Below, one piece after another: positions 27,488 to 59,269 of a DNA stretch of 64,000 nucleotides (the first letter of the stretch is position 1; every line of letters starts with the position of its first letter). The DNA is taken from positions 744,001-808,000 of the forward strand of contig JAWMAR010000039.1 of assembly GCA_036785375.1 (NCBI GenBank), written 5' to 3'. A program made the translations under genes and the position numbers. The notes under the pieces were generated by a model. That model worked only from the letters and a program-made list of their open reading frames with translations. It made no database searches and was not told the DNA's origin. Source of the DNA: Leucoraja ocellata (taxonomy: Eukaryota).

Positions 27488-27882
27488 TATAGAAACATAG
27501 AAACATAGAAATTAGGTGCAGGAGTAGGCCATTCGGCCCTTCGAGCCTGCACCGCCATTTAATATGATCATGGCTGATCATCCAACTCAGTATCCCGTAC
27601 CTGCCTTTTCTCCATACCCTCTGATCCCCTTGGCCACAAGGGCCACATCTAACTCCCTCTTAAATATAGCCAATGAACTGGCCTCAACTACCCTCTGTGG
27701 CAGAGAGTTCCAGAGATTCACCACTCTCTGTGTGAAAAAAGTTCTCCTCATCTCGGTTTTAAAGGATTTCCCCCTTATCCTTAAGCTGTGACCCCTTGTC
27801 CTGGACTTCCCCAACATCGGGAACAATCTTCCTGCATCTAGCCTGTCCAACCCCTTAAGAATTTTGTAAGTTTCTATAAGAG
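27488..27882 (-). mobile_element. CR1 LINE 3' fragment
   Basis: Minus ORF 27587-27850 contains FFTQRVVNLWNSLP; tail (atagaaac)n. Confidence 0.9.
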
Positions 27883-28680: not shown

Positions 28681-30064
28681 TTCAGACCCCATCGGAACGC
28701 AGTCCATGGTCACAGAAGCGGATTGACCTGCAGTGTTGCCACTGTTTTTCTGATTTGAATCTCAAACAGCTGGTAGATCCTGTCATGGATTTGAGAAACT
28801 CAATTTTCTTCAGTGACAGTGTTGCCTCTGAAACTTACTGTCTTACGGTTCCAATAAGCGAGTTCGGTATTCCGACTGTGCATGCCCAGGTCATACGACA
28901 CTGGAGATAAACATTCTCGACAGCTGAGCTGCTGCATGTATACAAACCTGCGTTTCATCCGCAATCAGGATCGAACCGGGTCTCCAGCGCTGCAAGCGGT
29001 GTTGATTTGCTACTGGAGTTAGCGACACTAGTTCTCCCTTCTCCACTGGTCCATGCAGAAATGTCAGCAGTGACAATCTATTGAATCACGGTCCAGCCCC
29101 CCTCAGTCTGGGTGTATGGGTTCCATTCTCACTCGGGCTGCCCTCCAGGGGTATACAGGGTTATTATACAGGGGCGAACCATGCACTCTGTCCAGGGGCA
29201 GCCAGAGATGTCCGGGGTGACCCTGGACTGACGGGACACCGGTCCAGAGCAGTGGCGGTCCCAGGCTTGCAGCCAGCGCGGAGTAGAAGCGCTAACTCCA
29301 GCTCAACTCTGCTCCAACTCCCGAGGAACCGTTCCCCGACGGGCCGGGGACCGTCAGCTGCACCTCTCACCTTATGCTACCTGCCCCGCTGAGTTACTCC
29401 AGCACATTGTGTCTACCTTCGGTGTAAACTAGCATCTGCAGTTTCTTCCTACAGGGCGACGACGCCTGTCCGGGTAAAGGCGAGGCGGCGGGGAGAGGGA
29501 TGGGATAGAGAGAGGGATGGGATGGGGAGAGGAATCCCTCCACCTCCCCCCCCCCCCTCCATCCCCCCCGCCCAGGACTGGAGGGAGGGACTGGGGGACA
29601 TTGCCCGCCTCTGCAACCAACCTGCAAACCCCAGCATTCCCCGCAGAATGTTAGACTAAACACATCTATGAGCAAAACACAAACACGCACGTCTTTCACC
29701 CCCCTTCTCTCTCCCCCAACTCTCACCGTCTCTCCGCCAGTTCAGTCTCTACCCGTCTCCCACTCGCATCTGCCCCCCTCTCTCTCGCTGTTACACCCCG
29801 CTCTCCCGCTACCCGGCACCCCCCTTCGCTTTTTTTTTTTCTCAAATGAACTTTGACAAATCCCATGATTCCTTGCGTTTTTCAGAATACTGAACTCGCT
29901 TCTTGCAGGTGAGCTGTGTTGGACCATCTTTACCTAAGCACCATGTTTAATTTCAGAAAGGCTTCGCACTTCATTTCAGCTCTATAGGTTTATCACAAAA
30001 TAGATTCTAGTGACATCGTCCAGAAAGTTTACATGAAACAGAAGGCTTGGCTTCACTTTGAATC

Positions 30065-37618: not shown

Positions 37619-38151
37619 TGCTGAAGACTGTAATTGCTGGATGTGGGGAAAGGCAGCAGGTCAGCAATGGAGTGTGTGTGAGTGTGTGTGTGCATGTAAG
37701 TATGTGAGTGTGTGTGTAAGTATGTGAACATGAATGATTGATCATGTGGGAGTGTGAGAGAGTGTGTAATAGTATGTGTGTGAGAGTGTGAGTGTGTAAA
37801 AGAGTGTGTATTGTGTGTATGAGTGTATGTAAGAGAATGTGGGTGTGTGAGAGTGTGTGTGTGAGTGTGTGTATGTATGTCAGTGTGTGTATGTAAGAGA
37901 ATGTGAGTGTGTGTAATAGGTGTGTGTGAGTGTGTATATGAGTGTATGTAAGAGAATGTGAGTGTGTATAAGATGGTGAGTGTGTGTGTGTATACGTGTT
38001 GCCTGCCTCAGTGACAGAACACTTTGCTCAACCTGCCCCGGTTCTCGCTGTAACCAGGAAACTGAAAGATAGCAAGTGAGTGGGGAAACAGCAGAGTGAG
38101 CTTATTTGAACTGTATTTTTTTAACACACAGAGATATTCTCAGCAGAGAGG
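37440..38151 (+). promoter_or_regulatory. Probable internal promoter/5'UTR for the 38152 exon
   Basis: Palindromic E-box TCACGTGA at 37492-37499, followed by (CT)n and TG-rich tracts directly upstream of the small first exon. Confidence 0.35.
37514..37998. repeat. (CT)n microsatellite followed by an imperfect (TG)n tract
   Basis: Directly visible at about 37514-37615 and 37670-37998. Confidence 0.95.
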
Positions 38152-38202
38152 ATGGATTACTATTATTGTCCATGGCTACGCAGAATGTTTCAATACTTTT
38201 GG
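38152..38202 (+). CDS. KIAA1671: Alternative first coding exon of a short KIAA1671 isoform (MDYYYCPWLRRMFQYFW)
   Basis: aggATGg start, 17 codons, consensus donor TGG|GTAAGT in phase 0. Resembles a recalled MDYYYCP-type short-isoform N-terminus (not verified). Too short for the ORF track. Confidence 0.7.
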
Positions 38203-39739
38203 GTAAGTGAGCTGTGGCAGTCACTTCCACCAGTGCTGCCTCTCTCAGGAATCGGTGGTGCTCTCTGCTTAAAATGACAGGAAACCTCTGAATCAATTCC
38301 AAGTCGTAACCTTGATGCTAAATATGTGGGAAGATGGTTCATGTTAACTCTCAGCGTTCCAATGTTTCACGTTCCACTGGACAAATCCTGTGTCTGGTGC
38401 AGAGATCCTGAAGAGAGAAGAATTATTCCGGCAGTGTGTCTCAAGGTGCTGTGTTTAATATTGAGCACTTGTTCAAACTGAAAGTTTATGTCAAACTTGT
38501 AGTATTTTCCTCCACACTGTGTCAGGTTTGCTAACTAGCACAAACAACAGGGGGGAAATGTATTTTTGCCTATTGCCAGGCGATTTGTGTTGTGAAGATC
38601 GGGGTGGTGAGTCTTAGCAGTGAAAACTGTGGTGTGGGGTAGTGGGTGTTCATGGTGAAGACTGTAGCTCGGAGTGCCTGGCTACTCGTGGTGAAGAGCG
38701 TGGAGTGGATTGGTGGGTGTTCACAGTGAAGAATGTGGTGTAGGATGGTGGTTATTTACTGTGAAGACTGTGGCTCGGAGTGCCCAGTTACTCACGGTGG
38801 AGACTTTGTATGTAGACCCAGCTCCCACACCCTCTGGGAGAGTACGGGTGCATTAATGCGGTCATTTGATGTTCAGACACCCACTGTGAAGACGTGTTGC
38901 ATTATTCACGAGCACTATGTGGTAAAGTCCAGCATTCTGGTGTTGCCACTGTTTCGCCATCGTTTTACAGAAAGCTGATTACCTGAATAGATCATGCAAA
39001 GAAATAAACAAAAACCAGATTAAGTTCAACAAAGGATAAAACATTTCAACAAAAGTAAAAAATAATATATTGCTTTTTCTGCTGCATAAACTCTTATGAC
39101 AGATACTGTGGTCATGTTTCAGAAAGAAGCATTGGAGCCACTTCCAGGTATTTCAAAATATTAGTGCTATGTTTTTCATTGTTGTTCAGTCAGTCATTGA
39201 ATAAATAGCTGAAATCCTGAAATTCTGACATAATTTATCTGCAATCCTGTGATTTTTGCTGAGCAACGTGCGGAGCAGCCTTGAGATGTAGCAATGAACC
39301 GGAGATGGGTTGAATATGTGCTTTGTGTGAGTCGATCTTGATTAGTTAAGCGGCGATGAGAGGGGAGGAATGCACCTGGACACTGCTTGCCCCACATCTA
39401 GATTGGCAGAGCCAAACGTCCCAGCTCTTTCCCACTCTGTTTCCGATCTAAATCTCAGGGAGCGGAGAATAAAGACTACATGTTGGAGATACTCGGCAGG
39501 TCAGACAGCATTTGCACAGAGAGAAAGTTGGAAGCGGAACGAGTAAAAGTGCAGAGAGGACAAGGGGTGTTCACTTGGGAATAGTTTGTTAACATGGAGG
39601 GGGTCGACGGTGTGTATTACATTCTCACTCGGCGCACACAAGCCGGTTAATAAACAGTTGTGGCCAAAGATGGCATGCAAGAGAGGAACAGGAAATGATT
39701 GAAACGTAGAACGCAATAGGGAAGATGCAAAATCTGTGG

Positions 39740-39920
39740 AAGATTGCCACAGAGGGCTGTGGAGGCCGTCACTGGATATTTCTAAGGCAGTGATAGACAG
39801 ATTCTTGATTAGAACGAGTGTCAAGGAGAGAAGGCAGGAGAATGGGATTAGGAGGTGGAGATCTGCCACGATTTGACTTGATGGACCAAATGGCCTAATT
39901 CTACACCTGTAACCTGTGAG
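39740..39920 (+). mobile_element. CR1 3' end, degenerate
   Basis: Homologous to the reverse complement of 51090-51317. Confidence 0.65.
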
Positions 39921-42914
39921 CATGTTGTGATCTTCACCTTAACACCCAAACCTCTCCCCTTCACCCCTCTCGCCATCCTGTCCACGCCCCCTGCCCCAGC
40001 AACCATACCCATCTCAGCAAAGGCCAAAGGCTGTTGTTCTACAACCTCCTTGTTTGAAAGCAAGTTTCCCATTTGAGGCATCACTGAGTCTCAATGTCGA
40101 AAGCAATGTCTAACGTGACACAGTGTGGTTATAAATGGCTCAGCGGAAATGAGAGCCTTTCCTGCCTTTATGAAAGAGGAATGAATACAAAAGGACTGTG
40201 AGACTATGAGTGTAATTAGCTCTGCTTCCCTACAATATTGTACAGGTGAAAAATAGGGGGAAATGATCAATGTAACATGATTGGTGCTTGGACAACGATG
40301 CAGAAAATACAACAATTGGGCATTGTTATTGTGTGGGGAAGCGGTTCAGAAACCATAAGTAATAGGACAAAACATCATGATGAAGGTACAAGACAGAATG
40401 AGGCATCAGAAAGGAGGACGCAACCACAAAGGTCAAAAATCCCAAATAATGCTTCAGATGTGGGATAATGTAAGTCAGAAGTAGGAAGCGATCGAATGTG
40501 ATGAAGGGTGAGAGATACTAAGTTTGGAAGTGACAAAATAATGTGAGTAAAGTCGTCAGCAGTGGGTGTACAGGCAGGCGATGGGGGATTACAGAATCTA
40601 CCAAGGGCTGGAGAGCACTGGTGTCACCGAAATGGACAGGTCATGAAGTTTGAAGATCAGATGTAGGTCAAACAGATAATTGACCTTGGAGAGGGCTGAG
40701 AAAAAGTAATTGTAGATAGGATGCGAACATTCATACATCAAATTGGCAGACGGCAAGAGACCAGGTGGTTCATTATTCGGACGCAATGACGGCCAGTAAA
40801 ATGTGACCAAGACCCCGATTGTTACTATGTAATCTTCTGGGAATGCGGAAACTGCAGGAGCAAGAAGGGAAAAGTGCTCCTGAAGTTTCCTCTCAGATCA
40901 TCAAAACCAGTGGAGTGGACAAAGGCACCAACTCTGAGATGTGGATGGGTACTGATTGTGGATGATCAGCCATGATCACATTGAATGGCCAGTGCTGGCT
41001 CAAAGGGCCGAATGGCCTACTCCTCCTGCACCTATTGTCTATTGAGATGGAATCTCTGTCCCAGTCACGATCCAATTCGAAGTTCAGAGACGTTACATGG
41101 ATCTGAACCAATGCAGAGGTGGGGAAGTGGAGATTCAAGATCATGGAAACATGGCACTCTGAAAATGGCACTCTGCTGATTATAAGGTTACCACAAAGAG
41201 GAACAATAAATTCACCCCATTACACTGATTCTCTGACTCACTGTTCAATGTCATTTGGCAGTAACATTGCATTGAAAATGGGAAAGATGGTGGTTTTATC
41301 GGAGCTTCTAGATGTGTTGGAGGCAAGGTTCTGGATCCATAGATATGTGTACACTGTAATCATGGACCTTGTTTTGTTTTGATGCTTTAACAGTAATTGT
41401 TCACTAAAATAAATCCGTCAGGTTATTTTCACCATACAAAGTTGTTTGTAGTATTGTAACCTTTTCCCTGCTAATCTTTGAGATTCACTTCTCATTAATT
41501 CACAATGAATGCTGCTCTATTTGTTCCTCCTTCCTTGTTTATAGAACATATTGAAAGATTCCCTTAAATTCTGCCAATTTGCCTGCACTTCCCTTGAATC
41601 AGTCATTTTGCCTCACCGCCAACACCACTACAATCTATAGCACAAGATCTCGCTAGCTTTGAACACATGCCCACAGATTGTACAGGGTCAGGATACACAG
41701 AGTGAGGATAAATGCTGAGAGGAGTTGTCAGAAAGCAAATAACAACTGTCCATTTGTGGCCCAAATGGGGATGGTCTATCTGAGCTAGGGTGTTGTTATA
41801 AAGACGTCAGAGAGAAATTATCAGAATCTGTCAGGATCCATCAGGAAATTCAGAGCTGAAACTGATGACAGTCGTTCAACACGGAATGGTTCAATTAGTC
41901 CATGTGTTGTAATTGTCTGGAATAATCCTGGGTTTAATTCCTGGATGAAAAGTTAATTGTGGTAAATGTGTTAACCTTTCAGTCCTGGCAGGATTCAATG
42001 TAGATGAGGTTACTTCATGGATCCTAGACTTTGATCATTTCACTATTTGATGGTGTGCTGTGTTTGGCATCTGGAAAAGCAAGGAAAGATTTTAAATAGC
42101 CAGCCTACTCAGTTAGATTATCGTTGGTCTGTATCTAACTCCATGACTTACCTTGGATCTGTAACCGTAATTTATTTGTTTTTAACGTCAAAAAAGCTTT
42201 TAATCTTCCTTTGATTTATTTTGAAGTTGAGCCTAGATTTCCACTAACTTTTCTGATTGCACCAGAAATTGCCCAGCTCAAAATCTAAGGTTTGGCCCCT
42301 TGATCTTGATTATTTCGCTCTCCCTACCAAAGTCTCCAATAGCCTTCAACACTTGAGATGGTAATGTGTGATCTGATGCTCTTGCAACAGTTTCTGCAAT
42401 CTAACCTTAGTCTATCTATTTTAGCCCTGGTGTCCTTCTGCTAAACTTATGCTGCACATACTCCGCGTATGTCTCAGAATCTCTATTCATAGTTCCGGTG
42501 CAGCTTTCATCTCGGGAGGTCTGAATTTAACGTCAGAGCAACAGTTGTCCACATGTCAGTCAGATCTTTCACGGCAAAAGTCATTTCTCTTAACTATAAC
42601 CTATAACGTCAAGTGTTAACAATTACTTATTTACGCTCGTATCTTTTAATGTGGTTCCGATCTACCAGATCCACACATCCCTGCAAATGTTGCTTCATTC
42701 AGATGTAAAACCTTGGTTACTGACTGAATGAATCATATTCATTCCTCTGTGAAGTTCCACCATTTAAGATCGCTGTTCCCACAAAGACCCTGCAACCACC
42801 ACATCAACATTAACCCTTTCTCATTGATCTAAAATAAGTTATTCCTTATTGGTTGGTCCACACTCTGGGCAAGAAAACCTTACATTGTACACAGTGTATA
42901 TTCAACCTCCAGAG

Positions 42915-43212
42915 GGGGTGACACAGTGGCGCAGTGCTAGCGTTGCTGCCTTAGTGCCAGAGGCCCGGGTCCAATCCTGACTATGGGTGCTGTCTGTATG
43001 GAGTTTGTCCGTTCTTCCTGTGAGCGTGTGAGTTTTCTCCGGTTTCTGCGCACATTCTAAAGACATGCAGGTTCGTAGGTTAATTGGCTTCTGTAAAATT
43101 AATTTGTTCCTCATGTGTAGGATACAACTACAGTACGGATGATTGCTGGTTGGAACGGACTTGGTGGGCCAAAGGACCTGTTTCCATGCTGTATCTCGAA
43201 ACTAAACTAAAT
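42915..43212 (+). mobile_element. HE1-like tRNA-derived V-SINE, near full length
   Basis: A-box-like tggcgcagtgc, B-box-like ggtccaatcc, V-domain tatggagtttgtccgttcttcctgtg, tail gctgtatctcgaaactaaactaaa. Confidence 0.8.
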
Positions 43213-44902
43213 GTGTTAGTTTGGTTTCCCGATCTAAAGCTTGGTGTATAGATGATGCCAGTGCCCCAAAGACTACACCATTAACTCCAGATTATTTGAG
43301 CCACAATTTCAATTCATGCTGCTGTTTTGCATTTGGCCTGATATGATCTGAGGATTCGGTGATATGTTTGCGGTTCTGTTTATAATCTTGACCCCGACTG
43401 CTGCCGATCGCTGAGGAGAACCTCCCACATAGTCAGGTCAAGGTGGGAACAGGCAAAGCCTGGATAGCAAGCTCGGTGCTTCCCATCCACACGTATTTGT
43501 ACAAATGTCCCAAACCGATGGAAGTTTGGAAGGAAAACCCATCAATTCCTTGCATACATAGGCCCATTGAGGGCTTCATCTGAAGGGCCTGGAGCTGAGT
43601 GAGGAGCTACTGACAGATCCTGACCAAAACTCAGTGCAATTGTAGACACAGAGTAGACACAGTCTTGATTCTCCATCTATCTGAAGATAAAGGTTATTAT
43701 TCCAGCTGGCTTTTTTTAATTATTCTTGCCTTATTGGTTTTCAACGTTGTGTCAACATTAGAAACACCATGAGACACAAAGCACTGAGCGGGTCAGGTCA
43801 CATCCCTCGAGAACATGGACAGGTGATGTTTTGGGTTGAGATCCTTCTTTATCCGCAGTTCTTTGTTTCTAAGTTAGAAACATCTTCTGCCACGGAGGTT
43901 GTCCCTTGATTACTGATTTCTGTCATCTGCACAACAAGGTGGTTATCGCCTGCAAGCGATGCTGCCCCCCTCTGGACACAGGCAGCAGCAGGAAACCTGG
44001 TGAAGTCTGAGATCAGTGCAGTGAAAATTGTTGTGTTCCCCTCTCTTTCAACCTCTAAAGACCAACATTCAAACCCTCAAGGGTTCCCCACTAATTGTAA
44101 CGGGGACCCTGCAATTGAATTTAATAAATGGTATTCGCCCAGCATTCCTGTACATACATCAGTTGCTAGCATTCAGCCAACTTTCCTGCCTGTCATCTCT
44201 GCTGAAGATGTTTGTTTGTATTGGGAAATTTCTGACACAGCCATGCTGAACTGTGGGGAACATTTACCAGGGACGTCCCCAATATGCCAGATATGCCATC
44301 ACTTACTTTTGCACCTCCTGCCCCCTCAGATTTGGTCAAGTAATATATTTAGTGATTTTGTATTCTTCCTTACAATGTTACCTTCCCTTGTGCATGACAG
44401 CTCTTGAGTGGGGCGTGGATCGGTGATTGTCAGTAAATATCTAGTACTTCACTCTGTGACTGTCCTGATGTTGAATGTAGATAGATCTGCCATAGCACCC
44501 TCGACCTTACACTTTGACCCTGCTTCTGTTCCCACAAGCGCTGCCTGATTCATTGACTGCAAACTTTTGTTTTTATGTAGGTGGGTTTGTGCAGCTTTGA
44601 GCTGTCTGACCTACCGTCTTTCTCTAAAACCTCAACCATCGAGAAATTGTTGTGTTTTTCATCCCACCTTTAGTTCCCTTAGTCAGCATTTTCAGTGTGT
44701 TATTACATGATCCTGTGGGGCTGGGATTATGGATTCACTCTGTGCCATCGTGGACATTATCCTTGGGGTCTGGTTGGCAGCCTTCAACCTATCAGCACAC
44801 CATGATGGAGAAGATGGCAGATGTTTGTAGACTACCAACCTTTCGGGTGCAGGAAACGGGTCTAAAATCCTTGACAATTATATGATGGATTATGGTGTCA
44901 CC

Positions 44903-46170
44903 CAGGGCTGCCAACTCTCACGCTTTGAGCGTGACACTCACGCATTTCAGCCAATTCTCACGCCCTCATGCTGAAGACAGAATTCTCACGCTGGCTTAGT
45001 CCCTGCACAGCAAAGATCGTAGAGCGGAGCTGTAGGATCTTTGCTGCACAGTTTGTCTCTTTGCGCCACATGACAGCGCTCTGCACAGATTGGGGAAGCG
45101 CGTCGGTCCCGGGCAGCGGGTGTCAGCGCTTTTGTGCGCCGTCTGCGAGCGCTGCGCTTCTGGCTGCCGCAGCAACCTCGCTCCCTCCCTCCCTCCTGCC
45201 CTTCAACTCACACGGCAGCGCCAGCGCCGCCAATCCACGCTACATCGTGCCCGCCAGACTCCCCATTGGGCGGCCGGGTAAAGAGAGGGAGGGGAGAAAG
45301 AGAGAGAGTGAAAGAAAAAAAGGGAGGGATGGAGGCAAAGTGAGACGGGGAAGGGAATGTAGAGAGGCATTGAAGGAAGGGAAGGAGAAAGGGGAGAAAG
45401 AGGAAGCGTGAGGAAAAAGAGGGAGGGGAGGAAAGATGGAGGGGGGGAAGGAAAGATGTGTTTCCCTGTGTGTGGCTCCTTGTGTGTGTGTGTGTGTCTC
45501 CCCGTGTGTGTGTGTGTGTGTCTCCCTGTGCGTCTGGTGTCACATCCTGGCCTTAGACAGGGCTGCCAACTCTCACGCTTTGAGCGTGAGACTCGCGCAT
45601 TTCACAAAATTCTCATGCTCTCACGCTGATCACAAAATTTCTCACGCTCAAATATCTGCGGGTGCTGAAAGTTCAAAATAAAGCAAAAATTGTTTTGGAG
45701 GTGAGTAAAAACCATGAGGGGAATATCAGGTGAATGCCTGATTCCCCAGGATATGTGATTCAAGCACTAGAGGGGATTAGTTTAAAGCAGGGCTATCAAA
45801 CTACCGGCCTGCGAGATGATTTTGGGGGAAAGAAAGTAATTTAGTTTCTCCCATGCAGATGGTGTGATAGGTGAGACACGGCGGCAATGGTCCCAGCACC
45901 AACTCCCCCTCCCCCTCCCCCCCTGAGGCACGGCACACACCTCCCACCGTCACCTCCGGCGGCTCTATGTCTGTCGACCGCTGTCCACACCCCATGGAGT
46001 TTTAACCCAGGCCCGGAGCCAGGAGAGGACCGGGTGAGTGGGGGCGTTGGTGCAGCCTCCGGCGCCTACTATGGGAGGGGGAACAACCCCTCCCACACCC
46101 ACCCCCCCTCGGTCGCTACGCTCCCGTGCAATTTCTCACTCTCAACTCTCACCCAATGTTGGCAGCCCTG
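44903..46170. mobile_element. Non-autonomous hAT-like DNA transposon
   Basis: 13-bp perfect TIR CAGGGCTGCCAAC / GTTGGCAGCCCTG. Flanking direct repeat tgtcacc at 44896-44902 and 46171-46177. Subterminal ctctcac motifs, no transposase ORF. Confidence 0.75.
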
Positions 46171-47662
46171 TGTCACCTCTCATTCAGGGAGAGGGATTAC
46201 TGCAGCACTTTAGTGACTGAAGATTGCAAAAGGATCAAATCGAGGCAGTGTAAGCAAAATGTTGAGAGGTTTGGGATGTGGTGTTATAATTTAACAACTT
46301 GTATTTCCAGTTTTAATTGATGAGCAAAGAATGCCCTCACACTGAAAAGCCAGACACTGTTCCCCATCTGTCAGCAGTCTGCAGAGAGAAGGATCACTGG
46401 ATCAGGGACAGATACAAAATGTGGAGTAACTCAGCAGGTCAGGCAGCATCTTTAGAGTTACTCCAGCATTCGGTATAAACTAGCTTCTGCAGTTCCTTCC
46501 TACATACAGGATTGGGGATACCTTTGCCGATATCAAAGATCTTGCGTGGATAATTCCATCTTATGTTGGGACATTGCGAGCTCACAGAGACAGACGGTTG
46601 CCCAGTGAAAATTGTTTTTAAATCGAGGCCCTGCCCATATAGATCGCAGAGCTCCAGGGCTCCAACCCAGGGCTTCAAAGAAGATTTTCATGTTTCCGCT
46701 CACTCTCCCTCCACCCTCCTTTCCTCTCACACGCTTCTTCCCAAATCAAGATCACACTCGTTGAATGATGTCAACTCTAAGGGTTGGGCAAGTTGAGATC
46801 AGTGAGTGAGAGGCTAAGAAGTGAGCTGATGAATCTTCTTGACGTAATGAGGGGTTTAGATCAAACAGAAATGACGTAATCCCTCCATCTGATGGATTGT
46901 TAACCTGACCTCAGAAACTTTGGCAGAGATGGATTGTGTGAGGGGGGGGGGGGGGGGGAGGTTGTGCGGAAACTTTTCATTGGAGAATTATGATCTGGAA
47001 TAGGACTAAACGGTGGTGGCATCCTAAACTATAATTAATTGTGAGAAGGTGAATGGGAAACAAGGATAGGAGCTTAGGAGAGAAGAGTGCACCATCTCTC
47101 CAGGAGTTAGTGCTCCCACAATGGGCTCAATGGCTGACTATGTAAGCAGTTTTTTTAAACCTATCTTAAATATGCTGATCTACTTTCTAAAGGTTTTTGG
47201 CCATATTTTGTTTTGTATTTCATCCCATTTCATTGACACACGTACATCCACTCCAGGTCATCAACCTGTCCTCATGTTGCCCATTGCATGCTTGTTCTCT
47301 CTGCTTAGTGATCCTCTCATGAAGTAAGTGTTGATGTGAAACTGGGCAATCAAATTTGTAATTCGGGTCAGGCCCTAAACTCTCGAGCATGGCCAGTCAG
47401 ATCTGGGGCTCATTCATAACATTCTTTCAGTGTCAGTGATCAGAGCCTCAGGATTACACATACAGTGAATACAATCAAGGTGAGAGAGTCCCAGGCATGT
47501 GTCCACAGAGCTATGTATTATTGTGGCATTAGTGTTCAGCATCCTTCACTTGGGGTTCCTGCTCCCTCTCTCCAGTGAAGAGTAGTCGCAGCTCGCAACA
47601 GTCGACATCTGACGACTAATGTCTTCCAGTTAAGAAACCACAAAAGTCAGTCTCTGTCAAAA

Positions 47663-47917
47663 TCTCCCTCCCTCCCTCTCTCTCCATCCTTCGCTCCCTC
47701 TGTCCCCTCCCTCCCTCCCCTCCCTCTCCCTCCGATCCCTTTCCCTTTCTCCCCGTCCCCTCTCCTCCTCGCTCCCTCCGTCCCCCTCTCCCTCTCTCTC
47801 GCCCATCCCCCTCGCCCTCCGTCCCCCTCTCCTTCTTTCTCCCCATTCCCATCCCTCTCCTCCCATCCACCTCCCTCTGCGCCCCCCCCCCCCCCCCCCC
47901 CCCTTCTCCCTCTCTCA
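47663..47917. repeat. Polypyrimidine low-complexity tract
   Basis: Almost pure C/T, with a long C run. Confidence 0.9.
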
Positions 47918-50084
47918 CAGTTTTATGAAGAATTTTTTATCAACACACCAATGAAAAATAAATGTTAGGGAAGGTTGTAACACATTGTGAATTCAGCCCG
48001 TGTGATTCTCACTGTGCAGAAGATTAATGTCAAGCAGAGCAATTAGGAATGAAGCCAGTGTTGCATAGAGGAATCTTCAAATTGGACCCAGTGCTTTCAT
48101 TGGTTTTTTTTCTTGTTTTGTGAGATTTAAATTTATTATCTTCTTTGCTAATTTCACATAAAGAACTCCACTTCTGAAAACTACTGAAACTGCCAGCAGT
48201 GTTTTACTGAGGATAATGAATGGTTCAGGAGTTACATTTTTGCACTGATGATTTCAGGGTCCTGTGTTGCTGTGAACTGGCATTTGCTCATGAGAAGCTT
48301 TGTTCACTATTGAGTGCCCGTTCCAGTAATTCCCTCAGTGGCCCTCAATGCCCAGCTATGTCTGAAGAAGGTTCCCGACCTGAAACATCACCTATCCATG
48401 TTCTCCATCGATGCTGCCTGACCCGCTGGGTTACTCCAGCACTTTGGGTCTATCCCCAGCAAAGACACATTAAGTTCCCGGTAACTGGTTGCCCTTGGGT
48501 TTGCTCACCTGCTGATGGAACTCTGGTGGTGGAGGGAACAGGGCTTCCCTTTCAAAGTAAAATTCACGACTAACGTCTCTGAATATTGATAATGTTGACA
48601 ACTTCACACTAAAATGGCAGCAATTCTTCAGCAAATATTTGGCGATGTCTCACTTTGTTTCACTTACACCCAAATATGCCTTTAATTTTTGCAAGTGTTA
48701 CTCTTGTTCATGCTGATTAATATCCAGAGTTACCAGGACTTGTGAATCCTTCATTCCACTACTTGCTGTGGGTAAGATTAGGTTACAGTTGAACCACAAA
48801 ACCCTTTCCTCATTTGGGAAGTGACTGTGTGTGGTGTTCACATTGTATTTTTGCAGGGAGGTGTCAGTCTGTTGAAGTCAGTAAGACCAGCCATTGACTA
48901 TCTGAGCTTGTCAGGTTAAAATGAATTGTTCATTCAAGTAATCATAATGCTAGCTCTTGGTAAGTCTGCACTCCTTTCTTTTAGTTTGCTTCTATGATTT
49001 TTTTATAACCAGTAATATGCAGGGGAAACAGTGAAGTCTTTGTCAGTCATGGACCATTTCAAATGAGACCAAGACAGATGTGTGAAGAGATTAAGGGCCA
49101 GAATTACTTTGTAAACAACAGAGCTGGAAGCTGTGAGCTGCTCTTGAACAAGGTCTGATATTAAATGATATTGTATTCTTGTTAAAAGCCAACCATCGAA
49201 TTTACAAAATCTCACTGTAATATCCACAAGCAGCATTAATCTCACATACGCACACATACATGCAGATACATACACATATGCATGCATACATGCATGCATA
49301 CACGCATGCATGCTCACATATGCTCATATGTACACTCAAACTCACACACAACACATGCACGCATACAATGCATTGCAAAGATCACAGGATTACAAATATA
49401 CTCCCCTGCGTCATGAACATTTAAAATAGTCACTTGATTTCCTGTTGTAAAATGTGATCAGTTAAGGACATGTCATTGTAGAAGAACCAAAGTCACAAGG
49501 TCCGCTGACTGCAACAGGCCAAATGAGGATGGGTTGCTGATCCCAAGGCAGGGCCAGACCCTTCATCTGCCGGCTCTCGGAGAGAGACCGAAGCGCAGGG
49601 CGCTAGTGCCCAGTAGTGGTCTGAGGAGCCGTGGTCTACATCAGAGCTGCCTCGTGTCAATGGTTCACTTCATCCAACCGGAAAAAGACAACCTCAAAAA
49701 CAGAGTACTTTCACTCACTGCTCTTGGCCTTGTCCAGTGAAGGAGCCAGCAGATCACTGCTACATTTATATATAAGCTTGGCTTGTCTGGTCATAAAGTC
49801 ATAGAGTGATACAGTATGAAAACAGGCCCTTCAGCCCAACTTGCCCGCTGCACATTGGCCAACATGTCCCAGCTACACTAGTCCCATCTGCCAGCATTGG
49901 GTCCATATCCCTCCAAACCCATTCCTGTCCTAACCCTCCAAACCTGTCCTATCTTCGTCACTAAGTATTCAGAATATATGTGAGGGACATCTCAAAATCA
50001 GTCGTCAACATCACCACAGGTGGTTTGTGTTCAAACTTTGTCCCACCATCATAAATCATGACTATGGGTGAACTTGGGATAGGG

Positions 50085-50395
50085 ACTGGACATTGTCCCT
50101 TCCCCCACAGTGGTGTCCATTGTGGGGGGGATGATTTTTTGTCTGTAAGGTAATGGCTGCCGTGAAAGGAGAGTGGATGTTGGCGCGCTTTAGCTGCCGC
50201 TGCTCTCTCTTCACATTGTGTTTTTGATTTTTGTTTTTGGACTGAATTCTGTTTTTAATTTGTGTTTCTGTGATGTCTTTATTATTTATTTTATTCTGAT
50301 TATATGTTTATATTTCCTGTTAACCTATGTAAGGTGTCCTTGGGATGTCTGAAAGGCGCGCAATAAATAAAATGTATTATTATTATTATTATTAT
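50085..50395 (+). mobile_element. L2-like LINE/SINE 3' end
   Basis: tgtaaggtgtccttggg..gaaaggcgc..aataaataaa followed by (TAT)n, typical of L2-type tails. Confidence 0.6.
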
Positions 50396-50738
50396 AAATG
50401 AAATCTACCCAATAACTCGCTTGGAAGTATAGCTGGTGTTAGCACTGGAACTAAAATGAAGGGCGTCGGCTACTGGTTACAAATGGTGTTTCGGATAGGA
50501 CAGGTAAAACAAAAAAATGTGATGGTGACATTTTGGATCAGGACCCTTCTTCAGACTGATTGTAGGGGGGGTAAGAGAAGAAAATGTTCTTCTTCCCACA
50601 CCCACCTACAATCAGGTTTCCCAACCTGAAACGTCACCTATCCATGTTCTCCAAACATGCTGCCTGACCCACTGAGTTACTCCAGCACTTTGTGTCCTTT
50701 TGCGTATTAACCAGCAATTACAGTTCCTTGTTTCTCCT

Positions 50739-50741
<3 letters not shown>

Positions 50742-50776
<35 letters not shown>
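50742..50776. repeat. (TA)n microsatellite
   Basis: Directly visible. Confidence 0.95.
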
Positions 50777-50779
<3 letters not shown>

Positions 50780-51089
50780 GAGGGAGAGAAATAAGAAATG
50801 TGTGAGTGATATTTTAGAATTTAGTGTGGCCAAGTAACTGGTAGTTTCAATGCACAGAGCATGAAAAATAAATTAAATGAACTCCAAGTTCATCTTTGAG
50901 TAGGCATGGTTATTAGAATGGAGCCATGCCTGGGATTAGGTCTAAACTTGTACTATAAACTAGTGGGGTTTATTGGAAGGATGAGGAAAATGGTAGCAGG
51001 GGACACTATCTTTGGAGGGGAAACTATCTTTAAGTTAAATTAGACAATTGAAAGGAATTTTATACTCTAGGTGGAGTTGGCATCATAAG

Positions 51090-51317
51090 AGAAAGTAGCA
51101 GAATTAGGCCATTCGGCCCATCAAGTCTACTCCGCCATTCAATCACGGCTGATCTATCTTTCCCTCTCATCCCTATTCTCCTGCCTTCTCCCCATAACCC
51201 ATGACACCCACATTAATCAAGAATCTATCTATCTCTGCCTTAAAAATATCCACTGATTTGACCTCCACAGCCTTCTGTGGCAAATAATTCCACAGATTCA
51301 CCACCCTCTGACTTAAG
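51090..51317 (-). mobile_element. CR1 3' end
   Basis: Shares gtagcagaattaggccattcggcccatcaagtctactccgccatt with 11212-11315. Confidence 0.75.
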
Positions 51318-51726
51318 AAGATGGAGGTTTTGGCTTCCATCAGCAACTGAAATGATGGTACATTCAGAAATCAGACCAGGTGGTCTAAAATCAAACCACC
51401 AAGACATGTGGATTAACTGGCAGGTTTACTAGAAGCTGCAAGGAGCTGACTTGGCGATCTCAGAAGGTGGTGAATTTTCCTGCATGTGCTCAGAATGTTT
51501 TTCTGCAACAGAACCAATAAAAGACGGGGCCTTATAGGTTAGTATTGAGCAAAAGGGCCAGATTTAGTTAATCCTTCTGTACGTGAGTAATTATCTAATA
51601 ATAAGCATGTGATCAATTTCAATGTTGTGTCCAAATGAGGCAAAAGAAAATCACCTCCTTAGATTCCAGATTTGTGCCATGTATTGAGGCAGGATTTAGA
51701 TGCAGTAAATCAGATAAATATACTGA

Positions 51727-52020
51727 TTAGTTTCATTTAGAGATACAATGCGGAAACAGGCCCTTCGGCCCATCGAGTCAGCGCCGCCGACACACCAGGC
51801 ACAATTTGTTAAACATTTACCAAGCCAATTTGTGTACAAACCTGTACGTCTTTGCAGTGTGGGAGGAAACCGAAGATCTCGGAGAAAACCCATGCAGTCA
51901 CGGGGAGAACGTACAAACTCCGTACAGTACAACACCCGTAGTCTGGATCGAACCTGGGTCTCCGGTGTTGCAAGCGCTGTAAGACAGCAACTCTATCGCT
52001 GTGCCACTGTGATATGCCAC
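51727..52020 (-). mobile_element. HE1-like V-SINE
   Basis: Reverse-strand tRNA-like head with B box ggttcgatcc, V-domain and tail. Confidence 0.8.
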
Positions 52021-52413
52021 CCCACTGCTGGTTTAAACCAGACCAAGGAAAAGTGTTTGGAATGATTTATTGCAACATGGAGTCTGTATATATATCCTCA
52101 ATGTGGTGAGAAAGGGAGATTAATGAGTTGCTAGTTAACTATATCCCTGGACTGCTAAAGTGATGAGGCATGGTGAAAATTACAAGAGAAAAAATTATAT
52201 AAAAATGTTGGAGGGATGTATAGCTCAGTATAAGGTGGTAAAATAGGACATTAGACGCACAAAGTAGGAAAAAAAACCTTTACAGAGAGAGAAGGTGTTT
52301 GGAGCAGGCATCAAGATAAGGCGGAAGGGCCAGCATTCTGGTCAGCCCAGGAAAACCAATATTGAACCAATTAAATCAACATGAGTCTGGTAATGACAAA
52401 TGCCTGGGAGCAG

Positions 52414-52515
52414 AGTCTGAAGAAGGGTCTCGACCCGAAACGTCACCCATTCCTTCTGTCCAGAGATGCTGCCTGTCCTGCTGAATTACTCCAGCATTTT
52501 GTGTCTATCTTCGGT
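52414..52515 (+). mobile_element. Penelope-like fragment with an intact hammerhead-like core
   Basis: CTGAAGA-aGGGtctcgaCCC-GAAA-cGTC at 52417-52444. Confidence 0.65.
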
Positions 52516-53789
52516 GTCTCTACCTTTGCAGATGTCGTGACTATGAATTCCCAGTAGGATCTTGATTTGGGAACTTCATTTTTAGACTGGAAAACCATGC
52601 ACATCATTCAGCATTTTATGGAGGATGACAATGAGAGCCAATGACTCACTGACCCGTTGCCTTAACATCTGCTGTTCGAAATGTATCAAGGTCTATAATG
52701 GGTGGCTTGACTCAACTAATTGAACATTTTCATGTGATCCTGATGAGTGAGTGTTGTTCATACTGAACTGAGGAGCAGCAACAAGCTGGCAATTGCTGAT
52801 GAATGTTATGTGTTTAAATTTCCATAACCCATTAGATTTAGGCCATGCACTCAGTGTTTTTATGTCTTCAATGTTACTGTTGACTCTACAAGTCACTGCA
52901 GACGTGTCATTGACAAACTTGAACAGTTGGATTTCCAAATGAGAAGTTCTTCAAGTTGAAGCTCATTGAATTAATTTTACTGACCTGATAAGAAAGTTGG
53001 TGATCTGCAGTTAATGTTAGGATAGTAAATCAAATATCCAATGTTGCCTTTAGCAGCACTATGATAGACACCAGTTTAGCTAACATTTTTTAAATTAAAA
53101 AATGTTCTTTTAAAGATTGATCGAAGCTGCGGAAAACATCAGGACAATCATTTTTCACAAAAAGATATTTCAAAACAGTAAAAGCTCAAAACAATAAGAG
53201 ATCCAAAAAGTTGAGGTCTGCAGCTAAATCATGGAAAGGTCATGGAGAGTTTCAGAAACTGATATTACGCTGTTCTTTATATCAGGGGGACTAAAGTGTA
53301 AAGTGGTAAAGGTTACGGCAATACAAAGTCCTCATTGCAACACAGTTGGAGAAATGTGGTGCCTCACCTTGGAAAAGACAGTCGGTTTGGAGGAGATTTA
53401 ACAGAATAACTTGGGTCTTAAGGAGTTAAAGTATGAGTTTAGGCAATGTTTTGTGGAGATTCAAATGTTCAGTGATTTTATTTAAGTTTATGTCATTTCA
53501 TGATGAACAAATGTACATTCACTGTAACAAAATTCTCTCTATAAATTGAGGAATCCAAATCCAAAAGTATTGACTGACAATTAGACCCAGGTCTTGCAGA
53601 AGTAACGTCAGGGCGGGCTAGAAGTGTGGAACTGTTCTGAAGGCGTCAATTACTGTGGGGTCACTTGTTCAAGGTGAAGGAATACAAAACGAAACAGTGA
53701 CATTTTCTGCAGACAAATAATGTAAGAAAAACCAGGATATGGAAGATTTCACCAAGATAAATAGAAACAACAAAATGGTAGAAATAGTC

Positions 53790-54510
53790 ACATAGGGCAG
53801 AAACAGACCCTTCGGCCCAACTCATCCATGCTGACCACGATGCCTCATCTACACTAATTGTTTATTGTCTAAACCCACCTGCTCACATTTAGCCAATATC
53901 CCTCAAAACCTTTCCTATCCATGTACGTGTCCAAATGTATTTAAAATGTCTTTATACTACCTACCTCAACTACCTCCTCTGGCATCTTGTCCCATATACT
54001 CATCACCATCTGTATGAGAAAGTTGCCCCTCCGGTTCCTATTAAATCTTTCCCCTCTCACCTTAAACATATGCATCTTGATTCCCCTATTTTGGATGACT
54101 CTGTGTATCCAACCTGTCTGTTCTCTTCATGATCTTATACACCTATATATGATCACCCCTCAGCCTCCTGCTCTCCAAGGAATAAAGTCTTAGCCTGTCC
54201 AACCTCTCCCTATAGCCTGTACTCTTGTCCAGGTAACATCCTCAAAAAAATGTCTCTGCACTCTTCCAGCTTAACTTCATCTTTCCTGTAGCAAGGTGAC
54301 CAAATTGATCAATTTCCCCCCTGGGATAAATAAAGTTCTATTGTATAGTCAAACTGAACACAATGCTCCAAATGTGGCCTCACCAATGTATTGTACAACT
54401 GTAAAATGACATCCCAACTTGTATTCTCATTGCTATTGAAAGCTAATTTACCGAAAGCTTTCTTGACCACCCTATCTACCTGTGACATTACTTTCAGAGA
54501 ACAATCTACC
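53790..54510 (-). mobile_element. CR1-clade LINE 3' fragment
   Basis: Minus ORF QVDRVVKKAFGKLAF..LQLYNTLVRPHLEHCVQF. Confidence 0.8.
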
Positions 54511-54555
54511 GTCATTTTAAATTATTAGTATGGTGAGGCTAAATTTGATTTGAGA

Positions 54556-54830
54556 ATTAAGGGACAGAAGTTTAGAGGTAACATGAGGGGGGAACTTCTT
54601 TACTCAGAGAGTGGTATCTGTGTGGAATGAGCTTCCAGTGGAAGTGGTGGAGGCAGGTTCAATTTTATCATTTAAAAATAAATTGGATAGGTGGTATATG
54701 GATGGAAAAAGAATGGAGGGTTATGGATTGAGTGCAGGTAGATGGGACTAGGGGAGAATAAGTGTTCGGCATGGACTAGAAGGGACAAGATGGCCTGTTT
54801 CCGTGCTGTAATTGTTATATGGTTATATGG
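54556..54830 (+). mobile_element. CR1-clade 3' end with (gttatatg)n tail
   Basis: Encodes FFTQRVVSVWNELP..FKNKLD. Confidence 0.75.
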
Positions 54831-55819
54831 TCAAATAGTGGTTGGCAGAAGTGAAAATAATACAAAACAAATGTTTATGTTTAAAAATTAAAAGCAGAAA
54901 ATACTTGGAAAATGCGAAATATGGAGATTGAAAATCTAAATGAAATTGAAATGTTGGCGAGTACAGAGAGATGTTGCTGTTGTCAATAGAAGTAGAGGAA
55001 ACGGGCATGGAGTGTGATTGCTGGTGTACTGTGGCATTGATAAAGCTGATCTGGGCAGCGACAACACTGACGATCTACAAGTAAAGTTAGTAAACAAGAT
55101 AAACAGCCTGATCTTTGAAGGTTCTGTTCTTTTGGTTGATTTTCCAATATCATTGTGTGAATGGTGTCTGGCAGTCTCGTGGCTACATCTTACATCTAAC
55201 ATGCATCCGTTAGTGTCCAATCAGTGTGAGTTTTATGTATTGTGTGAATATTTGTCAAAGTATTTGTAATTTTTCTGGACTATTTAGTGCTTGCCTGATT
55301 CTGGTGTATCTATCTGAATCAGGCTGGTAGACCTGAACAAAGGGATGTGGAGGATGCAGTTTCTCCACACTGCCCAGAGCCATAGAATTGTCTGAAAGGA
55401 ACTGCGTAATTCTGCTGATTTACTGATCAGTGGTCTGGGGTTAAGTGTTCTGAGTTTCCTCTCTGCATCACGATCATTCAGTGCAATTCTCTGACAACCC
55501 AGCTGAAATACTTCAGTATTGTGAGATACACTGATACAGAATGAGGCCATTCAGCCCGTCGGGTCCATGGTAGTTTCTCAGCAGTTTGTACACATGTTAG
55601 TGTATTGTGCCTTCAGCAGCCAATCTCAAGGGCGGTTTCTGCTGTTCTGAGAGCTGTGTGTGGCACTTCATTTATTTGTTGGTGGCAGTGACTGCTGTTC
55701 GTCACAAGTAACAACTGAATTATATTCATCTCCATTTCAAGCTGCCGGAAGCTTCTATTCCCGTGACTTGTTCATCCCTTTGCGTGTTTCCAGCACTTTC
55801 CGTTTTACTCTTGGAAAGA

Positions 55820-55933
55820 ATGGAAGAGGAACTTGAACCTCGCCATCCATACGACAAGAGATCGTTTAGTAAATACATCATTTCACGTTTTCAACACATG
55901 TATGGAGATATGGATAAAATGTCCTCTGACTTG
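55820..55933 (+). CDS. Weak candidate alternative first coding exon (MEEELEPRHPYDKRSFSKYIISRFQHMYGDMDKMSSDL)
   Basis: agaATGg start in apparently non-repeat sequence, 38 codons, possible phase-0 donor TTG|GTGAAT. No recalled homology. Confidence 0.3.
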
Positions 55934-56685
55934 GTGAATTTTGGATCACTGCAAATTGCAAACTTGTCGGCAGTTTGGCACGGTATTTGTGTGGATAGTT
56001 TCACCAACAGAGTTCACACAGCTGGGCAGTACATTTGCAAACCAAATTTCTAGCTGAATCACTCTCACGTACTCTACACAATTCATTAAGGGAGAATTAA
56101 AAAAATTATTTTTGAAAATACTCCCACTTTATTTCAATATTTCCAACCATGACTTCGGCTAACCCCTTCTCTGGCCCTCCCATGTTCCATTGTAACTGAG
56201 GCTCATCTATAACGGTGCTTTCTGCAAAGAGTCCCATTCAGAGGTAGCCTCAGAGTGAGAGCAGAAATATCTGTGTGAATAACACGCCGCCTGTCTGTTC
56301 CTGTTATAGATTGTGCAGACGGCTGCTGGCCTAGTGTTGAGTGGGTTGCAAAGTGCTAGGATGCAGCCAGATCACGTGCCTGAGGAGGCTTGCAATAAGT
56401 AGTAATTTCCAAAAGCACGCGTTCCATTCATCATTCTGGTGATTTACCAAATATTGCTGATAATTTTGTTGTATATTTAATGTGCATGTAACACTGCAGC
56501 AAGAATATCCTGCTCCTGGTGCAGATGATAATTAAACTCTCTTGACTCTCGCCTTTGCGATGCAGAGAGGGAATTTTAAAGGAGTTTCTGACATTGTGTT
56601 TGATTCCACCCTTGCTTCTTTCCTGAGTAACAGACCCATTTCACTTGCCCAGATGCCTGGGATTCCCCATCACTTAAGTGCATGG

Positions 56686-56776
56686 TCTGAAGAAGGGTTT
56701 CGGCCCGAAACGTCGCCTATTTCCTTCGCTCCATAGATGCCGCTGCACCCGCTGAGTTTCTCCAGCAATTTTGTGT
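56686..56776 (+). mobile_element. Penelope-like fragment with hammerhead-like core and 14-bp TSD
   Basis: acttaagtgcatgg at 56672-56685 and 56777-56790. Core CTGAAGA-aGGGtttcggCCC-GAAA-cGTC at 56687-56714. Confidence 0.7.
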
Positions 56777-57044
56777 ACTTAAGTGCATGGAATGTTTTTG
56801 GTGCAATGTTACGAGGTGTGAGCCCTTGCAACCGGCTGAGACCTGACAAATGTGACCCTGAACTCTCTGTGGAAAACTGCAGAAACAGTGAATCCGCTCT
56901 GATTTGTATTGGTGACAACAGACATACCAATTGTTTCTGAACTTGGAAGTTGAGATGAAAATTAGATTCCTTCTCTCACCCATTCCTTCTCTCCAGAGAT
57001 GCTGCCTGTCCCACCGAGTTACTCCATCTTTTTGTGCCTATCTT

Positions 57045-57590
57045 GAGGGAAAGGTTATTGCCTTGACTCCACTTTACAAATCTCTCTGTCTCCTTCCTGC
57101 ACACCATCTCATAATGGTTTGAGATCCAGCCCACTACGGTGATGTCACCTGCAAACTTGTATATGGAGATAGAGCAGAATCTGGGCACAGTCATGAACTT
57201 ATAGGGAGGACGGACGGGCTGAGAAAGCATACGTGTGGGCAACTTACCCGGGGATGCTTTGTCACCTCTCCTCACTGATTTTGGTTTGTGGGTCAGGAAG
57301 TCCAGTGGCAGAGGGGAGCGTCTCCAGAGATACTTCCTGCCCCGCTGAGTTACTCCAGTATTTTGTGTCTATCTTTGGTGTAAACCAGCATCTGCAGTTT
57401 CTTTCTACACAGTTTGGATGTGAGTTTGGTTGGAATTAAGATGTTGAAGGCAGAGCTGTCGTCAATAAATTGGAGTCTGATGCTGGTGTCCTTGTTATCC
57501 AGATGTTGCAGAGATGAGGGCAGGGCAAGGCAGATGTGGACCTGTTGGGTGGACTGCAGTGGATCAAGGCTCTCTGGCAGGCTGGAGGTT
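57045..57590 (-). mobile_element. Degenerate Rex1/Babar-like RT fragment
   Basis: Minus ORF IYKFAGDITVVGWIS..KWSQGNNLSL, a decayed KFADD motif. Confidence 0.6.
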
Positions 57591-57899
57591 AATGTGGGGT
57601 TTTGTTTTCTATTCTAGTTTAACTAGTGAACAACATCGTGTGGATCGAACTGTTAGTTTGGTGATAGATGTGTGTTGTCCCGCTGGGCTCAGTGGCGTTA
57701 GTTTACTGCTCTTGTTCATGCTGTAATCAATCTCTGACGATTCGAGGGTTAATATTTCCTTCACTTCGCTGGAGAAAGAAAAACACACAATTCCCTCTGG
57801 GGCACTCATGACCCTGGAATGAATCCAAACGATCCTTCCCCTGGCCAAGCCTCACCTGTAAACCGCATCTCCTGCCACAAAGACTCGTTCAAACGAGAA

Positions 57900-58900
57900 A
57901 GGCAGAGCTTTGGTTGCTGGGCAACCGGAATTTCTTGAGCCCAACCCCTATCCCAGGCCGCTCCCCACCCCCCCTGCGGTCTGTTCACCTCGGGCCTCCC
58001 GGGGTAGGGGAGTGTGCGAACAGGGCGAGGGAGGGAGGCTGTACTCACAGAGACGATGCCCGCCTAGAGCGCTCTCTCTATTATACCCGCTCCGTGCATC
58101 TTACGCTCCCGTCACGGGCAGAGTGAGTGGAGGGTGTGGACCGTCTGCCGGCGGCTGCGGGAGAGGGAGAGAGAAGGGAGGCGTCGGGCAGCGGCGGTGG
58201 AGGCGGCAACCAGTGACCCCGCACCGCACCGCACCGCCCGCTCATTGCCCCGGGGTCCCCGTTCCTCTGTGTTCTGTGTTAACCCTCCCTCCGGGGACTG
58301 ACCCCAGCCCCCAGTTCACAGCTCGCCCGCCACCTGCCCTCCCTCTCTCCTGCCCTGATCCCAGCCCGGTGTCTCTCCCCTCCCCTCCCCTCCCACCCAG
58401 CAGCCCGGGGTGGCCGCTGCCTTATTAGGCGGCTCTGCCCGGAGCCCGTCTGACGGGAGGGACCAGATTCCTACTCAGAAGCCGGGTGGCGCCGTCAGTC
58501 GGCGCTGGGAGGGAGGAGGCGATGGGAGCGGCGGCGGCAGCGGTGGTGGAGCCGGGGGCGGGGAGCGGGGACTGACCATGGACTACCTGGGGGACAAGCT
58601 GACGGCGGCTCAAGGCCACATGTCGCAGTGGGTGGGCTCGGTTCGCCGCTCCCTGCACGGAGCCCTCGGTCTGCTGGGCTCGGCCGTGGGCCGGGAGCGG
58701 GGCGCCGCAGACTTGCCCACCGGGGCGCCTCTCAAACGGACCTCGTCCTTCCGCCACTTCGCCTCCCGGAGCCGGGAGTCGTTCCGCCGCTTCTCGCTGC
58801 GGAGCCAGCAGAGGTTTCAGTCGCTGAGGAAACGGAGCACCTTGTCCACCGGCTCCGACACCACCGACATCGTAAGCATCGCTCTCTCTCACTCGCTAGC
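57900..58900 (+). promoter_or_regulatory. CpG island / internal promoter and 5'UTR
   Basis: Strongly GC- and CpG-rich, not recognisably repetitive. TATA-like ctattata near 58078. Leads into the exon at 58578. Confidence 0.7.
58578..58871 (+). CDS. KIAA1671: Alternative first coding exon (98 aa, MDYLGDKLTAAQGHMSQWVGSVRRSL...SDTTDI), probably of KIAA1671
   Basis: accATGg start in a CpG island, GC-rich third codon positions, donor ATC|GTAAGC in phase 0. Lies on the same strand, inside the intron before the shared 3' exons. Confidence 0.75.
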
Positions 58901-59269
58901 ATCTTTCCTGTCCATGTCTTGGAATGGGGAGGGGAGGGAGGGAGAGGGAGAGGGGGAGAGGGGGAGGGGGGGGGGTAGTTATTGGTGGATTGTCTGGTTA
59001 ATATTTCAGGGTGACAACACGGCACAAACCGTGCCTTGAGAATATTTCGATAAACTTGTATTTCACGTAGAAACAAAGCATGTTTGTAATGGTGACACTT
59101 TTGCGCGATTGTATCTGAGCACATTGATCACACCAGCAATATCTTCTCGCCACCGACTGTAATCCCACGTTTAGTTTGCAAAGTTGCAGTTTGGGGAGGA
59201 GGGGACAGGTAATGGAGGAAGTGTCCACCTTGGATTTATTTACTATATACTTGTGAAAGTTCCACAGAC

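Follow-up and report, generated by a model that had tools for sequence, protein, structure and literature searches.

Sequence comparison identifies orthologues of the three human KIAA1671 start exons in the skate Leucoraja ocellata

We analyzed a 64,000-nucleotide stretch of genomic DNA from the skate Leucoraja ocellata (assembly GCA_036785375.1, contig JAWMAR010000039.1, termed C39; C39:744001-808000, termed the window) and assign it, based on sequence homology, to the 5' part of the gene KIAA1671. Judged by sequence comparison, its three coding starts are orthologous to those of human KIAA1671 isoform 1 (1806 amino acids, aa), isoform 2 (NP_001373864.1 / UniProt isoform 2, 313 aa) and isoform 3 (NP_001373863.1, 391 aa). 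Taken as a whole, we consider it very likely that front ends of 1,679 and 98 aa, and probably also one of 17 aa, are placed on a common tail, with promoter choice as the likely selector and membrane tagging by the two short ones as a proposed role. The resulting proteins comprise about 1,981 aa (long form), 400 aa (98-aa start) and probably 319 aa (17-aa start). The exons concerned are, in window numbering:

13282-15237, forward strand: coding exon 1 of the long isoform (ATG at 13343), an internal exon with an upstream acceptor at 13282 and a phase-2 donor
18898-19051, forward strand: coding exon 2 of the long isoform, located by tblastn with Mobula and Chiloscyllium proteins, with frame-consistent splice sites
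20582-23404, forward strand: coding exon 3 of the long isoform
25691-25855, forward strand: coding exon 4 of the long isoform, with a phase-0 donor GTAAGA at 25855/6 joined to the common acceptor
38152-38202, forward strand: coding part of the 17-aa alternative start exon (17 codons, donor GTAAGT), by homology the N-terminus of human isoform 2
55820-55933, forward strand: 38-aa candidate (38 codons, donor GTGAAT), rejected
58578-58871, forward strand: coding part of the 98-aa alternative start exon (98 codons, ACCATGG, donor GTAAGC), by homology the N-terminus of human isoform 3
161481 (C39:905481), outside the window: start of the common 3' exons, with a phase-0 acceptor

A first-pass annotation of this DNA had placed GT donors at 25855, 38202, 55933 and 58871, and all four, as well as the exon coordinates, hold on direct reading, with every donor in phase 0. 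The two stronger short exons were described as starting Met-Asp-Tyr in good Kozak context; both indeed carry A at -3 and G at +4, as does the 38-codon frame. The long N-terminus, estimated at about 1680 aa, consists of 1,679 stop-free codons spread over four coding exons. The phase-0 acceptor expected beyond position 64000 was located at C39:905481, and the variable N-termini envisaged on one TNKS1BP1-like tail correspond to three N-termini, with human isoforms 1-3 as their orthologues by sequence, on a tail carrying the Pfam domain PF15327 (Tankyrase_bdg_C).

The long front-end exons map to proteins of Mobula and Chiloscyllium (1,993 and 2,039 aa; 13 proteins with an expectation value, E, of <=0.001), coding exon 1 being 59% identical to residues 1-635 of Mobula XP_062890642.1. 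As an acceptor at 13282 precedes the exon with the long-form ATG, the long-form promoter should lie farther upstream; CpG-rich patches about 5.5 kb and about 21 kb upstream of the window (~-5.5 kb and ~-21 kb) could house it. The common phase-0 exon is the first of the tail of 302 aa and is followed by five further exons reaching ~C39:915010. P0002 and the 400-aa Leucoraja erinacea protein XP_055511874.1 both map to the 98-aa exon plus six downstream exons from C39:905481, and the tail is identical to XP_055511874.1 at 271 of 274 modelled residues. PF15327 matches residues 230-389 of P0002 (E 2.5e-36) and has two matches in the genome, both within C39:909477-910181 (two of five candidates). 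This genome search returned the KIAA1671 locus alone and no second locus that might represent a TNKS1BP1 paralogue of the same design. The named relatives of the locus are KIAA1671 or unnamed PF15327 proteins, and the label TNKS1BP1 is absent among the names listed for them.

To set the chance level of such exons, frames running from a strong-Kozak ATG to a phase-0 donor were counted in 48.5 kb of intron, using an approximate donor matrix. At or above the score of the 38-aa donor each strand held the same number of candidates (6 sense, 6 antisense); at the score of the 98-aa donor there were 9 sense versus 13 antisense. The pattern by itself is not above chance, and homology together with reads is therefore needed to decide among start exons. 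In sequence comparisons, the 17-aa and 98-aa exons stand out from this noise by homology alone.

For the 98-aa exon, 94 of 358 candidates matched at E <=0.001, ranging from catshark and teleosts to primates; many are named KIAA1671, and PF15327 is present in 88 of the 94. Against human, 64 of 95 residues are identical (67%), compared with 109 of 275 (40%) for the tail, while the long front end shares 400 of 1,495 residues with lungfish. By these alignments, the 98-aa module is more conserved than the annotated tail and is the best-conserved portion of the gene. It contains 21 invariant columns across 33 sequences, and has no Pfam family. Searching the genome with the 98-mer matched only the exon itself and its copy in the duplicate described below (two of 16 candidates). 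One coelacanth KIAA1671 protein of the 98-aa type, P0094, carries the UniRef label 'Crystallin beta B3', which is probably mistaken and taken from the adjacent gene.

The 17-aa exon encodes a peptide equal in length to the human isoform 2 start and identical to it at 9 of 17 positions. With the human 17-mer as tblastn query against 59 kb of intron, the best match falls exactly on 38152-38202 over its full length (E 2e-6), and the next-best match (E 0.008) contains a stop. A matching 17-aa motif begins 58 of the 197 proteins compared, 57 of which continue straight into the common exon; these 58 include human isoform 2 and also close relatives, so that the rows are not independent. Their starts share 7-10 of 17 residues with the skate exon, and positions 1, 3, 5, 6, 7 and 17 are invariant among them and the same in the skate. 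In a search based on shared 5-residue words, all 37 of 37 candidates were short isoforms of about 313 aa, amniote wherever named. Two frog proteins likewise place 17 residues, beginning Met-Asp-Tyr, before this junction.

Splicing was assessed in four sequencing runs of related species (X24, X1, X8 and X21), sampled at ~5-6% of each raw run and aligned to the common exon. The raw RNA run X24 (~5% sampled) gave 16 reads, 7 of which had a loose 5' end corresponding to the long donor exon (29/30 bases alike to its last 30, compared by eye). One contig each from X1 and X8 had a 5' loose end matching the 98-aa exon (26/30 and 28/30); the RNA status of these two runs is a guess, and X8 was flagged as probably DNA, yet its contig is spliced. 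No read of X21 aligned to the common exon (0 reads). The long and 98-aa donors are spliced to the common acceptor in related species. The donors named in the first-pass annotation are thereby borne out by junction sequences for the long form (7 reads) and the 98-aa exon (2 contigs), whereas neither the 17-aa nor the 38-aa donor was among the loose ends at the common acceptor in these four runs. For the 17-aa exon, splicing in this lineage is accordingly something we infer, with strong confidence, from its equal length, phase and position.

In the mechanism we propose, promoter choice would select which front end joins the common tail, and the 17- and 98-aa front ends would serve as alternative membrane-targeting tags for it. 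The tag function is a tentative assignment, at somewhat less than an even chance, derived from sequence features and structural models. The 17-mer is predicted to form a hydrophobic amphipathic helix, with a moment of 0.59-0.61 for the skate, human and hoatzin sequences, and its cysteine could be S-acylated; all 58 amniote rows have Cys6. For the 98-mer, AlphaFold predicts two helices (2-40 and 56-90; mean predicted local distance difference test score, pLDDT, 66), the second of them basic and aromatic, with a basic-hydrophobic score of 0.86 at residues 69-87. An amphipathic helix together with this basic-aromatic helix may bind membrane. The exon holds four Arg-x-x-Ser/Thr sites, and in view of the several Arg-x-x-Ser sites phosphorylation might act as a switch for binding to the membrane. 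N-termini of the Met-Asp/Glu type keep their initiator methionine, which is acetylated. Both short starts begin Met-Asp/Glu, so that a retained, acetylated methionine is favoured by these rules.

The tail, in turn, is predicted to bind actin capping protein. In the available part of the one functional KIAA1671 paper (PMC10092648), the full-length 1,806-aa protein is placed on F-actin at the base of microvilli, its C-terminus is described as weakly similar to the CAPZA2-binding region of TNKS1BP1, and an affinity-purification match between CAPZA2 and KIAA1671 is cited. That same portion of the paper uses the 1806-aa form only and does not contain the word 'isoform'.

Several results weigh against this reading. 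A profile search of the PDB gave no capping-protein complex and two weak matches (E 0.48 and 1.2). A basic patch of the tail scores 0.81-0.87, similar to the 98-mer, so that the basic-hydrophobic score does not single out the latter. No cartilaginous-fish or teleost protein with a 17-aa start was retrieved, in a search that required shared 5-residue words, and the four runs held no loose end from the 17-aa donor. The frog proteins lack Cys6 and have a cysteine at position 12 instead, which makes acylation strictly at Cys6 less plausible. No paper containing both TNKS1BP1 and 'CPI motif' (capping-protein interaction motif) was found in the literature searched.

The short front ends might, as a possibility that is real if not probable, be protein-binding or stability modules, or minimal peptides of tissue-specific promoters, rather than membrane tags. 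Amphipathic helices bind proteins too, and the 21 invariant columns of the 98-mer exceed the needs of a simple lipid anchor. A protein relative was hinted at by an Atlas feature search, in which PIMREG/RCS1 (PF07326) clusters reached 0.76-0.77 for the 98-mer, below the lead level of 0.9. This relation was not supported: none of 16 proteins had an RCS1 Pfam match at E <=10, and around the genome's own RCS1 match the best local profile hit to the 98-mer in the surrounding 15 kb had E 0.29 and was not significant, the RCS1 N-terminal exon not being located there. The hydrophobic face of the 17-mer is kept from this fish to human, which also speaks for the tags. As a separate observation, PF07326 matches in the genome lie at C49:4344809-4347790 (L033, L034) and C224:684998-685111 (L035), and no tie to the 98-aa exon was found.

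Extending the membrane-tag reading to its fullest form, KIAA1671 would hold a promoter-selected address switch more than 400 million years old, in which a lipid-modified 17-mer, a phospho-switchable 98-mer and a 1,679-aa scaffold route capping-protein regulation to distinct cortical sites and the short isoforms carry the core function. We regard this as speculative and rather unlikely in its entirety. If true, the gene's core function would rest with its little-studied short isoforms and not with the long one that has been studied. The 98-aa exon outconserves the tail, yet the functional paper found covers, in its available part, the long form only (PMC10092648). This makes the KIAA1671 isoforms a convenient case in which to test whether targeting depends on the isoform.

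The first-pass annotation had called the switch promoter-driven, which is an inference. A CpG island is seen at the 98-aa exon only. The features bearing on this question are:

57751-59000, forward strand: CpG island enclosing the 98-aa exon and likely promoter of that isoform
38114-38133, forward strand: T-rich tract plus AG, a possible acceptor 18-20 bases before the 17-aa ATG, as read from the sequence

The island (GC 0.69, CpG observed/expected 0.75) makes a separate promoter for the 98-aa exon highly probable. Near the 17-aa exon the CpG observed/expected ratio is 0.25-0.31 and there is no island; together with the T-rich tract and AG this leaves its status as a first exon uncertain, and a transcription start directly at this exon is favoured only mildly. 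It might instead be a second exon behind a non-coding upstream exon, or a rare cassette, entered via the AG at 38130-38133, which would make the switch partly one of splicing. Upstream in-frame extensions in some bird and turtle models of the 17-aa isoform would fit this arrangement. We nevertheless consider it rather unlikely, since most amniote models start at the methionine of the 17-mer and the 7 reads of X24 go from the long donor directly to the common acceptor (agreement 0.99), so that the 17-aa exon cannot be a cassette included constitutively.

The distance between the front ends and the tail is affected by a 76-kb tandem duplicate, C39:742231-894623 overall:

-1770 to 74359 and 74560 to 150623, window numbering: two tandem copies with a 200-N gap between them, the window (1-64000) lying inside the first

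We are confident that these are two haplotypes scaffolded end to end and that the duplicate is an assembly artefact. Copy 1 ends exactly at the gap and copy 2 starts exactly after it, the signature of end-to-end haplotype contigs, and the PF15327 exons are single copy. Were the duplicate real, the single tail would be preceded by two of each front end. The copies differ by 996 substitutions over 76,570 aligned bases (1.3%, or ~1.2% after removing two stray repeat rows) plus indels, which is high for two alleles, and their long frames are both open, with 1,679 and 1,677 codons. The 15 synonymous and 24 non-synonymous codon differences look unselected, however, and a true duplication appears improbable. 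With the copies collapsed into one, the distance to the acceptor is ~59 kb for the long donor, ~47 kb for the 17-aa donor and ~26 kb for the 98-aa donor. The likely false duplication is a caution for annotators of the GCA_036785375.1 assembly. Between the copies, the region of the 17-aa exon is identical over 161 bases, and the sole amino-acid difference in the 98-aa exon is codon 49 (58722-58724), Gly in one copy and Ser in the other with Arg in Leucoraja, which sits in the variable linker. The first copy alone carries a 385-base repeat (27497-27881), and a segment of 155 bases at 73161-73313 (window numbering) has opposite orientations in the two copies.

The 38-aa frame at 55820-55933, which had been listed as a weak third short exon, has a good Kozak context and a phase-0 GT donor, and extra lineage-specific KIAA1671 starts do exist in mammals (P0165, P0100, P0175), but a fourth, lineage-specific start exon is very improbable here, as in the second copy one extra base shifts the frame after codon 12, stops follow early and the donor is weaker, the number of such candidates is at chance, no 5-residue word is common to the frame and any of the 197 proteins, and it is absent from the loose ends at the common acceptor in the four runs.

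The 17-mer and 98-mer agree, ungapped, only at their first 3 of 17 positions (Met-Asp-Tyr). Being unrelated in sequence, they do not form a duplicated exon array, and the earlier wording 'array' has to be dropped. The proposal that the design is ancient stands, its age being at least that of the split between sharks and bony fishes: with the 17-aa exon present in a cartilaginous fish, all three starts would date to the jawed-vertebrate ancestor. As the human RefSeq and UniProt short isoforms and the Leucoraja 400-aa model are already annotated, the design itself is not new; what this analysis adds is that a cartilaginous fish has the 17-aa exon and that the 98-aa module is strongly conserved. 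The literature searched, which excluded most subscription papers and supplements (e.g. palmitoylome tables), held no description of the short KIAA1671 isoforms, of their being acylated or of how old they are. In the available parts of the sources, an alternate-promoter event of KIAA1671 is listed in stomach cancer RNA-seq (PMC6111597), and the gene is merely listed in PMC12652946 and PMC11581034.

The surroundings of the gene hold several further features. Downstream and on the same strand, crystallin exons occupy C39:930167-932665 and 942428-946279; one exon searched per cluster gave beta-B3 (E 3e-22) and beta-B2 (E 6e-25) as best PDB matches. CRYBB3 followed by CRYBB2 is also the order downstream of human KIAA1671. 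Several shark RefSeq models of 1,732-1,878 aa (P0189-P0195; Chiloscyllium, Hemiscyllium) stop just past the long donor and lack the tail, which suggests read-through or alternative last exons. On the minus strand, open frames at 16186-17009 have a zinc-finger-like start and a weak Pfam match to OSK (SGNH-fold) below the cut-off (E 4.5e-4), resembling ORF1 of a CR1/L2 long interspersed nuclear element. A 91-base direct repeat (44903-44992 and 45558-45648, 87% alike), whose end recurs in reverse orientation near 46160, bounds a segment at 44903-46170 that looks like a small nested DNA transposon; within this segment a frame of 49 aa (45887-46033) runs from an ATG to a strong donor. The open frames in the CpG-richer stretches 29006-29392 and 44935-45411 gave no start-exon evidence, with no Pfam match for 44968-45408 and inspection of 29006-29392 by reading alone.

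The known systems compared include the capping-protein regulators with a CPI motif (CARMIL, CD2AP, CapZIP); the PDB profile search gave no match to a CPI complex. In the clustered protocadherin and UGT1 arrays, several 5' exons share one constant 3' region and the variable exons are tandem duplicates. The KIAA1671 start exons are not duplicates of one another, and the gene is thus not an array of this type. The closest likeness is to human KIAA1671 itself, with the same three front ends, the same tail and the same junction, represented here by a cartilaginous-fish orthologue. Isoform X2 of the KIAA1671-like gene of Leucoraja erinacea (XP_055511874.1) likewise consists of the 98-aa exon and the same tail; the 17-aa isoform is not among the four members of its cluster, to which this check of RefSeq was confined. 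Further mammalian start peptides use the same acceptor (P0165, P0100, P0175 and P0105: human X2 with a pig counterpart, squirrel monkey, colugo). Unlike the shared starts, these are unmatched in the skate: five such peptides searched against 59 kb of intron gave no credible match (best E 0.015).

In plectin, another actin-associated cytoskeletal gene, short N-termini without sequence relation to one another are joined to a single common exon and govern the expression and localisation of the isoforms, according to the available part of PMC8468861. KIAA1671 shares this layout, with three starts, one of which replaces 1,679 residues, whereas the same source gives plectin twelve first exons with tested functions. 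In CACNB2, short conserved ATG-bearing first exons lie in large introns from fish to human, and beta-2a is acylated at palmitoylated cysteines, as described in the accessible portion of PMC2365960. The KIAA1671 exons resemble these in length, conservation and intronic setting; acylation is demonstrated for beta-2a in that text and only predicted for the 17-mer. The arrangement that characterizes plectin and CACNB2, several ATG-bearing 5' exons whose donors share one phase and lead to one common acceptor, is the arrangement found at KIAA1671 in the skate.

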